A program made the position numbers and the translations under genes. Positions 18,572-23,709 of a stretch of 64,000 nucleotides of DNA are shown in pieces (position 1 is the first letter of the stretch; each line of letters begins with the position of its first letter). The stretch lies in assembly GCF_013315695.1 (NCBI RefSeq), contig NZ_CP054353.1, one strand, 5' to 3'. This DNA comes from Escherichia coli. Its GTDB lineage: Bacteria > Pseudomonadota > Gammaproteobacteria > Enterobacterales > Enterobacteriaceae. The notes under the pieces were generated by a model. That model made no database searches, was not told the origin of the DNA, and saw only the letters and a list, made by a program, of their open reading frames with translations.

Positions 18572-20089
18572 ATGGCACAGATTGATTTCCGAAAAAAAAT
18601 AAACTGGCATCGTCGTTACCGTTCACCACAGGGCGTTAAAACCGAACATGAGATCCTGCGGATCTTCGAGAGCGATCGCGGGCGTATCATCAACTCTCCG
18701 GCAATTCGTCGTCTGCAACAAAAGACCCAGGTTTTTCCACTGGAGCGCAATGCCGCCGTGCGCACGCGTCTTACCCACTCGATGGAAGTCCAGCAGGTGG
18801 GGCGTTATATCGCTAAAGAGATTTTAAGCCGCCTGAAAGAGCTTAAATTACTGGAGGCGTATGGTCTCGATGAACTGACCGGGCCCTTTGAAAGCATTGT
18901 TGAGATGTCATGCCTGATGCACGATATCGGCAATCCGCCGTTTGGTCATTTTGGCGAAGCGGCGATAAATGACTGGTTTCGCCAGCGTTTGCACCCGGAA
19001 GATGCCGAAAGCCAGCCTCTGACTGACGATCGCTGCAGCGTGGCAGCACTACGTTTACGGGACGGGGAAGAACCGCTTAACGAGCTGCGGCGCAAAATAC
19101 GTCAGGACTTATGTCATTTTGAGGGGAATGCACAAGGCATTCGTCTGGTGCATACATTGATGCGGATGAATCTCACCTGGGCACAGGTTGGCGGTATTTT
19201 AAAATATACTCGTCCGGCGTGGTGGCGTGGTGAAACGCCTGAGACACATCACTATTTAATGAAAAAGCCGGGTTATTATCTTTCTGAGGAAGCCTATATT
19301 GCCCGGTTGCGTAAAGAACTTAATTTGGCGCTTTACAGTCGTTTTCCATTAACGTGGATTATGGAAGCTGCCGACGACATCTCCTATTGTGTGGCAGATC
19401 TTGAAGATGCGGTAGAGAAAAGAATATTTACCGTTGAGCAGCTTTATCATCATTTGCACGAAGCGTGGGGCCAGCATGAGAAAGGTTCGCTCTTTTCGCT
19501 GGTGGTTGAAAATGCCTGGGAAAAATCACGCTCAAATAGTTTAAGCCGCAGTACGGAAGATCAGTTTTTTATGTATTTAAGGGTAAACACTCTAAATAAA
19601 CTGGTACCCTACGCGGCACAACGATTTATTGATAATCTGCCTGCGATTTTCGCCGGAACGTTTAATCATGCATTATTGGAAGATGCCAGCGAATGCAGCG
19701 ATCTTCTTAAGCTTTATAAAAATGTCGCTGTAAAACATGTGTTTAGCCATCCAGATGTCGAGCAGCTTGAATTGCAGGGCTATCGGGTCATTAGCGGATT
19801 ATTAGAGATTTATCGCCCTTTATTAAGCCTGTCGTTATCAGACTTTACTGAACTGGTAGAAAAAGAACGGGTGAGACGTTTCCCTATTGAATCGCGCTTA
19901 TTCCACAAACTCTCGACGCGCCATCGACTGGCCTATGTCGAGGCTGTCAGTAAATTACCGTCAGATTCTCCTGAGTTTCCGCTATGGGAATATTATTACC
20001 GTTGCCGCCTGCTGCAGGATTATATCAGCGGTATGACCGACCTCTATGCGTGGGATGAATACCGACGTCTGATGGCCGTAGAACAATAA
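18572..20089 (+). CDS. dgt: dGTP triphosphohydrolase (HD domain)
   Basis: 505-aa [23 protein letters not shown]...; HD motif [12 protein letters not shown]. Confidence 0.96.
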
Positions 20090-20145
20090 CCAGGCTTTTG
20101 TAAAGACGAACAATAAATTTTTACCTTTTGCAGAAACTTTAGTTC

Positions 20146-20173
20146 GGAACTTCGCGCTATAAAACGAATCTGA
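20146..20173 (+). promoter_or_regulatory. Sigma-E (RpoE) promoter of degP
   Basis: GGAACTT at 20146-20152 and TCTGA at 20169-20173 with a 16-nt spacer, ~45 nt upstream of degP ATG; matches sigma-E consensus and the known envelope-stress regulation of degP. Confidence 0.8.
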
Positions 20174-20218
20174 AGAACACAGCAATTTTGCGTTATCTGT
20201 TAATCGAGACTGAAATAC

Positions 20219-21643
20219 ATGAAAAAAACCACATTAGCACTGAGTGCACTGGCTCTGAGTTTAGGTTTGGCGTTATCTCCGCTCTCTGCAACGGCGGCTG
20301 AGACTTCTTCAGCAACGACAGCCCAGCAGATGCCAAGCCTTGCACCGATGCTCGAAAAGGTGATGCCTTCAGTGGTCAGCATTAACGTAGAAGGTAGCAC
20401 AACCGTTAATACGCCGCGTATGCCGCGTAATTTCCAGCAGTTCTTCGGTGATGATTCTCCGTTCTGCCAGGAAGGTTCTCCGTTCCAGAGTTCTCCGTTC
20501 TGCCAGGGTGGCCAGGGCGGTAATGGTGGCGGCCAGCAACAGAAATTCATGGCGCTGGGTTCCGGCGTCATCATTGATGCCGATAAAGGCTATGTCGTCA
20601 CCAACAACCACGTTGTTGATAACGCGACGGTGATTAAAGTCCAACTGAGCGATGGTCGTAAGTTCGACGCGAAGATGGTTGGCAAAGATCCGCGCTCTGA
20701 TATCGCGCTGATCCAGATCCAGAACCCGAAAAACCTGACCGCAATTAAGATGGCGGATTCTGATGCGCTGCGCGTGGGTGATTACACCGTAGCAATTGGT
20801 AACCCGTTCGGCCTGGGCGAGACAGTAACTTCCGGGATTGTCTCTGCGCTGGGACGTAGCGGCCTGAACGCTGAAAACTACGAAAACTTCATCCAGACCG
20901 ATGCAGCGATCAACCGGGGTAACTCAGGTGGTGCGTTGGTTAACCTGAACGGCGAACTGATTGGTATCAACACCGCGATTCTCGCACCGGACGGCGGAAA
21001 CATCGGTATCGGTTTTGCTATCCCGAGCAACATGGTGAAAAACCTGACCTCGCAGATGGTGGAATACGGCCAGGTGAAACGTGGTGAGTTGGGTATTATG
21101 GGCACTGAGCTGAACTCCGATCTGGCGAAAGCGATGAAAGTTGACGCCCAGCGCGGTGCTTTCGTAAGCCAGGTTCTGCCGAATTCTTCCGCCGCGAAAG
21201 CGGGTATTAAAGCGGGTGATGTGATCACCTCACTGAACGGTAAGCCAATCAGCAGCTTTGCCGCACTGCGTGCTCAGGTGGGCACTATGCCGGTAGGTAG
21301 CAAACTGACCCTGGGCTTACTGCGCGACGGGAAGCAGGTTAACGTGAACCTGGAACTTCAGCAGAGCAGCCAGAATCAGGTTGATTCCAGCACCATCTTC
21401 AACGGCATTGAAGGCGCTGAGATGAGCAACAAAGGCAAAGATCAGGGCGTGGTGGTGAACAACGTGAAAACGGGCACTCCGGCTGCGCAGATCGGCCTGA
21501 AGAAAGGTGATGTGATTATTGGCGCGAACCAGCAGGCAGTGAAAAACATCGCTGAACTGCGTAAAGTTCTCGACAGCAAACCGTCTGTGCTGGCACTGAA
21601 CATTCAGCGCGGCGACAGCACCATCTACCTGTTAATGCAGTAA
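20219..21643 (+). CDS. degP: Periplasmic serine endoprotease/chaperone DegP (HtrA), two PDZ domains
   Basis: 474-aa ORF with signal peptide, catalytic GNSGGAL, Q-rich LA loop. Confidence 0.96.
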   Translation: MKKTTLALSALALSLGLALSPLSATAAETSSATTAQQMPSLAPMLEKVMPSVVSINVEGSTTVNTPRMPRNFQQFFGDDSPFCQEGSPFQSSPFCQGGQGGNGGGQQQKFMALGSGVIIDADKGYVVTNNHVVDNATVIKVQLSDGRKFDAKMVGKDPRSDIALIQIQNPKNLTAIKMADSDALRVGDYTVAIGNPFGLGETVTSGIVSALGRSGLNAENYENFIQTDAAINRGNSGGALVNLNGELIGINTAILAPDGGNIGIGFAIPSNMVKNLTSQMVEYGQVKRGELGIMGTELNSDLAKAMKVDAQRGAFVSQVLPNSSAAKAGIKAGDVITSLNGKPISSFAALRAQVGTMPVGSKLTLGLLRDGKQVNVNLELQQSSQNQVDSSTIFNGIEGAEMSNKGKDQGVVVNNVKTGTPAAQIGLKKGDVIIGANQQAVKNIAELRKVLDSKPSVLALNIQRGDSTIYLLMQ

Positions 21644-21651
21644 TCTCCCTC

Positions 21652-21679
21652 AACCCCTTCCTGAAAACGGGAAGGGGTT
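21652..21679 (+). terminator. degP terminator hairpin (AACCCCTTCC-loop-GGAAGGGGTT)
   Basis: 10-bp perfect inverted repeat 9 nt after degP stop, followed by CTCCTT. Confidence 0.6.
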
Positions 21680-21797
21680 CTCCTTACAATCTGTGAACTT
21701 CACCACAACTCCATACATCTTCATCATCCTTTGGGCATTTGCACAATGCCGTACGTTACGTACTTCCTTATGCTAAGCCGTGCATAATGGAGGACTT

Positions 21798-22955
21798 ATG
21801 GCTGGCTGGCATCTTGATACCAAAATGGCGCAGGATATCGTGGCACGTACCATGCGCATCATCGATACCAATATCAACGTAATGGATGCCCGCGGGCGAA
21901 TTATCGGCAGCGGCGATCGTGAGCGTATTGGTGAATTGCACGAAGGAGCATTGCTGGTACTTTCACAAGGACGAGTCGTCGATATCGATGACGCGGTGGC
22001 ACGTCATCTGCACGGTGTGCGGCAGGGGATTAATCTACCGTTACGGCTGGAAGGTGAAATTGTCGGCGTAATTGGCCTGACAGGTGAACCAGAGAATCTG
22101 CGTAAATATGGCGAACTGGTCTGCATGACGGCTGAAATGATGCTGGAACAGTCGCGGTTGATGCACCTGTTGGCGCAGGATAGCCGTTTGCGGGAAGAAC
22201 TGGTGATGAACCTGATTCAGGCTGAGGAGAATACTCCCGCACTTACTGAATGGGCGCAACGGCTGGGGATCGATCTCAATCAACCGCGAGTGGTGGCTAT
22301 TGTTGAGGTCGACAGCGGTCAGCTTGGCGTGGACAGCGCAATGGCGGAGTTACAGCAACTGCAAAACGCGCTGACTACGCCCGAGCGTAATAATCTGGTG
22401 GCGATTGTCTCGCTAACCGAAATGGTGGTGTTGAAACCGGCGTTGAACTCTTTTGGGCGCTGGGATGCAGAAGATCATCGTAAGCGAGTTGAACAACTGA
22501 TTACCCGCATGAAAGAGTACGGCCAGCTGCGTTTTCGCGTTTCGCTGGGCAACTATTTTACCGGTCCTGGCAGTATTGCCCGATCCTATCGTACGGCGAA
22601 AACGACGATGGTGGTGGGTAAACAGCGGATGCCAGAAAGTCGCTGCTATTTTTATCAGGATCTGATGTTGCCTGTGTTACTCGACAGTTTGCGTGGCGAC
22701 TGGCAGGCCAACGAACTGGCGCGACCGCTGGCGCGGCTGAAAGCGATGGACAATAATGGTTTACTGCGGCGAACGTTGGCGGCGTGGTTTCGTCACAATG
22801 TGCAACCGCTGGCAACGTCAAAGGCGCTGTTTATTCATCGTAATACTCTGGAGTATCGGCTTAATCGTATATCGGAACTGACCGGGCTTGATTTGGGCAA
22901 TTTTGATGACAGGTTGCTGCTGTATGTGGCGTTACAACTGGATGAAGAGCGGTAG
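21798..22955 (+). CDS. cdaR: Carbohydrate diacid regulator CdaR (SdaR)
   Basis: Track ORF 21780-22955; start trimmed to MAGWHLDTKMAQDIVART; C-terminal HTH. Confidence 0.92.
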   Translation: MAGWHLDTKMAQDIVARTMRIIDTNINVMDARGRIIGSGDRERIGELHEGALLVLSQGRVVDIDDAVARHLHGVRQGINLPLRLEGEIVGVIGLTGEPENLRKYGELVCMTAEMMLEQSRLMHLLAQDSRLREELVMNLIQAEENTPALTEWAQRLGIDLNQPRVVAIVEVDSGQLGVDSAMAELQQLQNALTTPERNNLVAIVSLTEMVVLKPALNSFGRWDAEDHRKRVEQLITRMKEYGQLRFRVSLGNYFTGPGSIARSYRTAKTTMVVGKQRMPESRCYFYQDLMLPVLLDSLRGDWQANELARPLARLKAMDNNGLLRRTLAAWFRHNVQPLATSKALFIHRNTLEYRLNRISELTGLDLGNFDDRLLLYVALQLDEER

Positions 22956-22973
22956 GTCGATGACAAAATTACA

Positions 22974-22995
22974 GCCGGGTGAGACTTTACCCGGC
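22974..22995. terminator. Hairpin between convergent cdaR and yaeH (GCCGGGT-gagacttt-ACCCGGC)
   Basis: 7-bp inverted repeat in the 53-bp convergent spacer. Confidence 0.45.
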
Positions 22996-23008
22996 CCACA
23001 GAATGACA

Positions 23009-23395
23009 TTATTTACGCGTCAGTTTTTCCAGATCGGCTTCAATCTCGCTGATCTTATTGGTTACTACTGACTCCAGGTGACGTAAGTCGTCGAGGATCT
23101 TACGCTTAAGATCAACTTCGCTGCGGTCACGCTGGCAGATTTGATCAAGCTCATCAATGATATACCGTAGATTCGGGCTGATTTCCTGGACTTCTTTATA
23201 ACCCTGACCCACACCATCAGCGACGACCGTTTTACGCTGACGCGGATATTTAAACTTCACGCTCTTGGCGAAAAACTCGCCTTTGTCTTTCTGGAAATAG
23301 ATTTTCAGAATATCGTTGTTGGCTTCCTGCCGGAGGCTGTAACGATCAATTTCTTCAGGATTGGTAATACCCAGACTTTTCAGATTGTCGTACAT
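23009..23395 (-). CDS. yaeH: UPF0325 protein YaeH
   Basis: 128-aa [30 protein letters not shown]... Confidence 0.92.
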
Positions 23396-23709
23396 AGCGT
23401 TACCTCAAAATGAGTCAGTAAATTGTGCTTATTTTAGCATTTGGCCTGGCCCGCCCGGCTCGACTGTGATCGCAGAAAGCCTTTTTCTTCCAGACTTCTA
23501 TCATGGCGTAAAAATCAAAAAATTACCTGCTTTATTGTGGCGATATTCCATGGGATGGATTAGCACATTTATCTTCGTTTTGCGAATTACATGACAGTCC
23601 GAAACAAGATGAAAAAGTATTTAAAAAAGGGGGGAGGAAGAATGAGCAGGACGAATTATTCTGAACCAGAAAGCAATCGGGCAGCGTCGTGCTGCCCGTG
23701 TACATACTT

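Follow-up and report, generated by a model that had tools for sequence, protein, structure and literature searches.

The 314-bp dapD-yaeH interval of an Escherichia coli chromosome as the probable scar of a lost yaeI-orfX cassette

Results and Discussion

The window, by which we mean the whole 64-kb stretch of E. coli DNA that was analysed, carries degP (20219-21643, plus strand), cdaR (about 21780-22955, plus strand), yaeH (23009-23395, minus strand), dapD (23710-24534, minus strand) and glnD (24565-27237, minus strand). The resulting order, glnD-dapD-[ ]-yaeH-cdaR-degP, is common to the window and to all of the cassette loci that are described below. The yaeH ORF encodes a DUF3461 protein of 128 aa (Pfam PF11944, E = 2.4e-55), for which the identical RefSeq protein WP_000272188.1 carries the name yaeH, and the dapD ORF encodes 274 aa, the homologous gene being annotated dapD in RefSeq. 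Both genes lie on the minus strand, with the yaeH start codon reaching up to 23395 and the dapD stop codon beginning at 23710; these ORF positions bear out the 314-bp non-coding gap at 23396-23709 that an earlier note on this DNA had pointed out. The note had further claimed that the gap lacks an ORF of about 270 codons, and indeed the ORF list holds none that is comparable: the plus-strand ORFs that touch the gap have 77, 40 and 40 aa, and a 139-aa minus-strand ORF (23532-23951) lies mostly within dapD in a different frame. When the whole 64 kb were searched by tblastn with K-12 YaeI, the check that had been proposed, the best match reached E = 2, i.e. there is no YaeI-like sequence; neither between yaeH and dapD nor elsewhere in the 64 kb did this query reveal an ORF of the Metallophos family PF00149, which K-12 YaeI itself matches at 5e-13. 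The identical 314-bp interval of strain ECCNB12-2 is annotated without any feature in RefSeq, and a 12-kb piece across the locus (20000-32000) is 100% identical to five complete E. coli genomes, including MS 21-1 and MSB1_4I. As far as the annotation of the window is concerned, the interval is rightly left non-coding and no gene was missed.

The K-12 order yaeH-yaeI-dapD, which the note had given, is indeed found in the K-12-like strain DSM 498 (RefSeq). There, an 813-bp yaeI, annotated "phosphodiesterase YaeI", sits in a yaeH-dapD interval of 1027 bp; its product is a metallophosphoesterase with a Tat (twin-arginine export) signal. The flanking genes of the K-12 locus (b0163-b0166), their order and their strand are the same as in the window. 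Pairwise comparison of the window with K-12 gave two shared pieces, namely the 150 bp adjoining yaeH (23396-23545), which are 98.7% identical, and the 35 bp after the dapD stop codon (23675-23709), hairpin included. Between these pieces the window has 129 bp (23546-23674, GC 39%), whereas K-12 has 842 unrelated bp that contain yaeI. Since 842 bp and 129 bp of unrelated sequence face each other, the two layouts differ by a non-homologous replacement and not by a clean deletion of yaeI. Loss or gain had been left as the two alternatives; loss is the one that agrees with the data, although not in the simple form of an excised yaeI.

The full form of the locus, dapD-yaeI-orfX-yaeH, is present in Escherichia sp. 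MOD1-EC7003, E. coli GF43, some E. albertii strains and Pseudocitrobacter cyperus. In MOD1-EC7003 the second gene, which we call orfX, is a 236-aa ORF (L014, 2672-3382) that starts 14 bp after yaeI on the same strand; in GF43 (L083, 3015-3725) it is annotated "hypothetical protein". In these four the cassette occupies the same position as the interval, and both of its outer intergenic ends are homologous to the window. An nhmmer profile built from five full cassettes matched the window at 23396-23565 (E = 3e-58, profile positions 1543-1709) and at 23666-23712 (E = 3e-9, positions 1-47), the latter match covering the dapD stop codon, the terminator and the early dapD-yaeI spacer, while nothing matched between 23565 and 23666. 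Relative to the full cassette, the window is without about 1.5 kb, i.e. yaeI and 93% of orfX, and has 100 bp of unrelated sequence instead.

What is left of orfX is its 3' end at 23515-23565 (minus strand), detected by tblastn and nhmmer as the last 16 codons plus the stop codon. The window reads C*SIPWNIATIKQVIF* where orfX reads CEPVPWGIARIKQVIF* (asterisks denote stops); one codon has been changed to an internal stop (tblastn E = 7e-6), and the match is the same for 10 members of the family. Counted in ungapped blocks of 10 nt upstream of the anchor TATCGCC..., the identity to GF43 is 7/10 and 7/10 and then falls to 0/10 and 2/10, which places the right-hand breakpoint at 23565/23566. At this junction the relic is ~70% identical over 20 nt, compared to >95% in the adjoining spacer, a divergence that calls for a source allele already diverged or for rapid decay. 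A coding remnant of yaeI was found in the interval neither by tblastn with YaeI, nor by blastn with the yaeI alleles of K-12 and four other Escherichia, nor with the nhmmer profile of the five cassettes. The suggestion that the gap might hold the gene ends of yaeI was therefore not confirmed; the actual remnants are the upstream spacer of the cassette and the orfX 3' end.

The orfX family is rare, with 19 clusters at E <= 0.001 among 5.8 billion proteins, and it gave zero matches to Pfam, NCBIfam, PADLOC, PHROGs and PDB sequences. The closer OrfX proteins, those with 55% or more identity to the query, all end in CEPVPWGIA(R/K)IKQVIF, two of them with slight departures. The invariant residues include C31 and C34 (TCSxC), H176, C180 and H181 (FHxxHCH) and a near-C-terminal V-P-W, and this pattern of Cys and His residues suggests a metal site. 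The AlphaFold2 model of OrfX is confident (pLDDT 89.8); a match of the predicted structure to a solved structure or fold was not found. The ends of OrfX are conserved and its middle is highly variable. The E. albertii proteins (L084-L087, 4001-4708) are only 59% identical to that of MOD1-EC7003; YaeH and DapD are 98-100% identical there. Remote homologues with 34-38% identity (L109 and the metagenome contigs L110 and L111) show no linkage to yaeI. Some of them lie just upstream of WapI-like (PF24716) genes and one lies beside relaxase and NikA-like genes, so for these remote homologues we rejected the idea that orfX is always paired with yaeI.

We surveyed 5426 complete E. coli genomes, in which each allele occurs in one copy per genome. 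The 129-bp segment, which marks what we call the short allele, was found in 3338 genomes with 93-100% identity to the query, and it was covered to at least 80% in 3337 of them, which means that they have the same junctions. yaeI was found in 2084 genomes with 87-100% DNA identity to the query, at least 99% in 1381, 95-99% in 367, 90-95% in 261 and 80-90% in 75. The two counts sum to 5422. The full dapD-yaeI-orfX-yaeH cassette occurs in just 1 of the 5426 genomes, that of GF43. About 38% of complete E. coli are of the K-12 type, in which yaeI is kept and orfX is lost except for its last 9 codons, while about 61.5% are of the window type, in which yaeI is lost and orfX is lost except for its last 16 codons. 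Strains with the short allele include O157:H7, O104:H4, HS, 536, an ST69 strain and the ST131 strain uk_P46212; yaeI-positive strains include K-12, DH1, BL21(DE3) with a 94% allele, O111:H11 and O80:H26. The yaeI-less state is thus the majority allele and is spread over unrelated lineages. The deletion of yaeI that had been proposed for this lineage holds as a loss, but with 3338 of 5426 genomes carrying the short allele it is not specific for the lineage. The short allele is ordinary gene-content variation, and the variability of yaeI is already on record: in a passage of Leimbach et al. 2017 (PMC5422975), yaeI is listed among the variable orthologous groups, with an enrichment in phylogroup A. 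This agrees with the presence/absence polymorphism that we see, while the same passage is silent on the anatomy of the locus, the orfX partner and the scar.

Two single genomes show further changes. In E. coli strain 1506 (NZ_CP059288.1) yaeI is split by an IS1-like element of the IS1X2 family, which is another route of inactivation. The short allele of E. coli BS-04 has a 28-bp deletion at the position of window 23546-23674, with most of the orfX relic gone. An A/G-rich stretch is rearranged as well, and assembly noise may be the reason for these changes.

On the other side of yaeH, the convergent cdaR-yaeH spacer of the window (22956-23008) has 53 bp with the hairpin CAGCCGGGTGAGACTTTACCCGGC, compared to 88 unrelated bp in K-12. 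The combinations that we observed are short allele with 53 bp, short allele with 88 bp, yaeI-only allele with 88 bp and full cassette with 53 bp, and these four combinations argue for recombination within or around yaeH.

The piece next to dapD, 23666-23709 on the minus strand, holds a predicted intrinsic dapD terminator of the cassette type, with its hairpin at 23678-23698, and the first bases of what would be the former dapD-yaeI spacer. The terminator scan gave CGGGCAGCACGACGCUGCCCG followed by AUUGCUUUCU, with an 8-bp stem that contains 7 GC pairs and with the tail ATTGCTTTCT; the fold has -21 kcal/mol (z = -3.7). The T run after the stem is unbroken in K-12 (ATTTTTTTG / AUUUUUUUG) but is interrupted by the junction in the window (AUUGCUUUCU). 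The predicted dapD terminator probably still works in the window.

The piece next to yaeH, 23396-23514 on the minus strand, is homologous in short, yaeI-only and full-cassette alleles; it would be the former orfX-yaeH spacer and is now the yaeH upstream region. Among the short alleles it is nearly invariant, with a pairwise diversity of 0.004 (11 E. coli short alleles) versus 0.046 in the adjoining 100 bp. A site for RNA polymerase-sigma70 (RpoD holoenzyme) in the homologous K-12 yaeI-yaeH spacer is given in a passage of a genomic SELEX study (PMC3946193). By eye we read an extended -10-like TGCTAAAAT at 23431-23439, and a consensus promoter scan of the interval found none. The conserved 119 bp probably hold a putative yaeH promoter, whose location we infer, together with the leader. 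The deletions of the K-12 type, of the short type and of Superficieibacter (see below), which are independent of each other, end inside the last 30-50 nt of orfX. These ends hint at a yaeH control region that begins at this point, and the shared end zone would fit a need to keep the yaeH upstream region.

For the comparison with other genera we scanned for YaeH with one genome per species, which gave 80 loci, E. fergusonii, Shigella and Salmonella not among them. In 69 of the 80 loci, nearly all from other genera, the dapD-yaeH spacer measures 109-125 bp and has no yaeI; the genera with this compact spacer include Citrobacter, Klebsiella, Enterobacter, Lelliottia, Kluyvera, Raoultella, Cedecea, Kosakonia and Atlantibacter. 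Like the window, the compact spacer is free of genes and consists of a dapD terminator followed by the yaeH upstream region. However, its hairpin AAAAAGCGGGC...GCCCGCTTTTTTT and its yaeH upstream sequence differ from those of the window, and it has no orfX relic. The window is not in the empty-site state of these genera.

The Escherichia loci in the scan are all longer than 109-125 bp. yaeI, with 82-89% protein identity to K-12, is present in E. albertii, E. whittamii and the E. coli species representative, Escherichia sp. MOD1-EC7003 has an interval of 1710 bp, and Escherichia sp. E1V33 has a short allele of 313 bp that is 94% identical to the window. Superficieibacter electus (L112, 3829-4034) has dapD-yaeI-yaeH, with a yaeI product 65% identical to K-12 YaeI and with a short orfX end, ...CTAAGATAAAACAGGTAATTTT, remaining in the spacer. 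Because yaeI sits at the same site and is accompanied by an orfX 3' relic, neither the cassette nor the loss of orfX is confined to Escherichia. Finally, an Enterobacter-like contig (L089) has dapD-orfX-yaeH without yaeI.

orfX is lost in the K-12 allele and in the window allele alike, but the extent of what is kept differs. The last 9 codons (ITRIKQVIF*) remain in the K-12 type, and likewise where E. albertii, E. whittamii or the E. coli representative have a yaeI-only allele; all of these share one right-hand breakpoint at TATC(G/A)CCAGAATAAAG. The window keeps 16 codons. As the short allele has about 20 nt of orfX that are absent from the K-12 type, it cannot be derived from that type; judged by their junctions, the two must be independent derivatives of an orfX-bearing form.

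Taken together, we consider it likely that the 314 bp are the scar left by the loss of a yaeI-orfX cassette between dapD and yaeH. In its full form, which is found within the genus Escherichia and a few other Enterobacteriaceae, the site consists of the dapD terminator, yaeI, orfX (236 aa), a spacer of about 118 bp and yaeH. A single event, independent of the one that gave the K-12 type, would then have removed this two-gene accessory cassette, taking yaeI and leaving no more than the last 16 codons of orfX, with 100 bp of unrelated AT-rich DNA in their place. yaeI was presumably present in the direct ancestor of the short allele, since the upstream terminator and spacer are retained and since yaeI lies upstream of orfX in every intact cassette that we saw. 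Both the succession of events and the part played by recombination are read from the junction sequences only. Observations that speak against the scar are the missing yaeI coding remnant, the stronger divergence of the orfX relic than of the spacer beside it, and the filler of 100 bp, which a plain deletion would not create.

Alternatively, the short allele could stem from a dapD-orfX-yaeH locus that never had yaeI, so that only orfX was deleted and the 100 bp are the decayed upstream region of orfX. A locus of this kind does exist (L089), and the sole coding relic in the window is from orfX. The 100 bp are, however, unlike the dapD-orfX spacer of L089, in which just the orfX end and the yaeH spacer match, and yaeI is present at every Escherichia locus that has an intact orfX. 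Moreover, the sequence CATCAGGGATAG that follows the terminator in L089 resembles, by eye, the ribosome-binding region of the cassette yaeI, GCAGGGATG, and due to this likeness L089 looks like a yaeI deletion itself. We thus regard this origin as quite unlikely.

This leads us back to the scar and to the nature of its filler, the 100 bp at the deletion junction (23566-23665, GC 36%). In each of the 3338 short-allele genomes the filler has a single copy, always at this locus; it is absent from the yaeI genomes at blastn sensitivity, and a second copy does not exist in the 64-kb window. We rejected a diverged or inverted piece of the cassette as its source: the Smith-Waterman score against the five cassettes on both strands is 24, compared to 22.2 +/- 2.2 for shuffled sequences, with 24 of 100 shuffles reaching the same score, and nhmmer gave zero matches of the filler to the cassette profile. 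It showed no match to the dapD-orfX spacer of L089 or to the Superficieibacter loci. Plasmid DNA was also rejected, because the seven "plasmid" matches are records of 0.4-4.9 Mb that are evidently chromosomal and contain the same locus, as was phage DNA, for which the sole matches are 27-nt chance ones to Enterococcus phages. Between 23380 and 23720 we searched for signs of IS, MITE or REP elements and found no direct repeats and merely weak inverted repeats; nothing convincing pointed to a repeat-mediated deletion or to the ends of a mobile element.

The pairwise diversity among the 11 E. coli short alleles is 0.046 in the filler, 0.074 at the third-codon positions of dapD and 0.021 in the orfX relic, besides the low value of the 119-bp orfX-yaeH spacer given above. 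The filler varies roughly like silent sites. It would be DNA that was captured at the junction and has no function. The diversity peaks among the short alleles with 0.107 in the 44 bp of the dapD terminator and spacer start (23666-23709). O104:H4 and Escherichia sp. E1V33 have a terminator haplotype of their own, with a GCATCATGC loop and a plus-strand TAA for TAG. This peak and the shared haplotype suggest mosaic recombination tracts.

A functional replacement would be a different explanation of the 129-bp segment, which would then code for a small protein (plus strand, 23642-23713) or for an RNA, small or antisense, transcribed convergently with dapD. The candidate is a mini-ORF of 23 codons at 23642-23713, whose ATG at 23642 is preceded by GGGGGGAGGAAGA with a GGAGG-like motif 4 nt ahead. 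Between the window and Escherichia sp. E1V33, 5 of 8 codon differences are silent, and the segment has been kept in a second Escherichia species as well as in 3338 genomes. When ten short alleles were aligned, we nevertheless saw indels in the Shine-Dalgarno-like tract, which delete the GGAGG in ST131 and other strains, as well as the amino-acid changes N to I, T to S, T to A, C to Y, T to M and F to S. The 3' half of the mini-ORF is the complement of the dapD terminator, and it is for this reason that half of the reading frame is conserved. The filler diversity of 0.046 versus 0.074 at silent sites also speaks against a function, and the consensus scan found no promoter-like site. For an RNA, the best Rfam match in the interval, sroE, is below threshold with 22.7 bits versus a cut-off of 51 and falls on the terminator hairpin. 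We judge that the mini-ORF is not a gene and rejected a small RNA; a functional replacement appears very unlikely to us.

Hardly credible, finally, is a reading along the lines of the second alternative of the earlier note, a gain in the K-12 lineage, by which the window would be the ancestral empty site and yaeI a horizontal gain of the K-12 lineage or of phylogroup A: outside Escherichia YaeI has no close relatives (>80% identity), and Verrucomicrobia are among the next ones, so that the whole cassette looks acquired at some depth, and the enrichment in phylogroup A stated in the passage of PMC5422975 points the same way, but the true empty site elsewhere is about 110 bp of unrelated sequence, the window has an orfX relic and a cassette-type terminator, yaeI is present in 2084 E. 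coli genomes, including BL21(DE3), O111:H11 and O80:H26 outside the K-12 lineage, with alleles diverged down to 87% DNA identity, and it occupies the same site in E. albertii, E. whittamii and remoter Enterobacteriaceae.

Conclusion

In summary, we find that the 314 bp between dapD and yaeH contain the dapD terminator of a yaeI-orfX cassette, a 100-bp filler, the last 16 codons of orfX and the yaeH upstream region, and we interpret the interval as the probable scar of the lost cassette. In the passages returned by a full-text literature search, yaeI appears in mentions from pangenome studies and screens only, and a description of the locus anatomy or of the orfX partner was not found there. 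According to a passage on a K-12 INSeq screen (PMC7414163), yaeI transposon mutants are among those enriched after phage T7 challenge, which might bear on why the yaeI-less allele is common. One may speculate further that the dapD-yaeH site is a long-lived three-state polymorphism (yaeI and orfX, yaeI only, neither) across Escherichia species that is kept by selection and not by drift, possibly on the basis of an envelope/phage trade-off of the Tat-exported phosphodiesterase YaeI, with OrfX possibly being of an immunity or defence type; as a whole we hold this idea to be unlikely. The item of wider potential is orfX, although the gene itself lies outside the window.

The data correct an expectation that was centred on K-12. 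Most E. coli do without yaeI, which belongs to the accessory genes, and K-12, having lost orfX, is a deletion derivative too. With its three states, readable from the junction sequences, the scar provides a clean marker by which recombination around dapD and yaeH could be followed.
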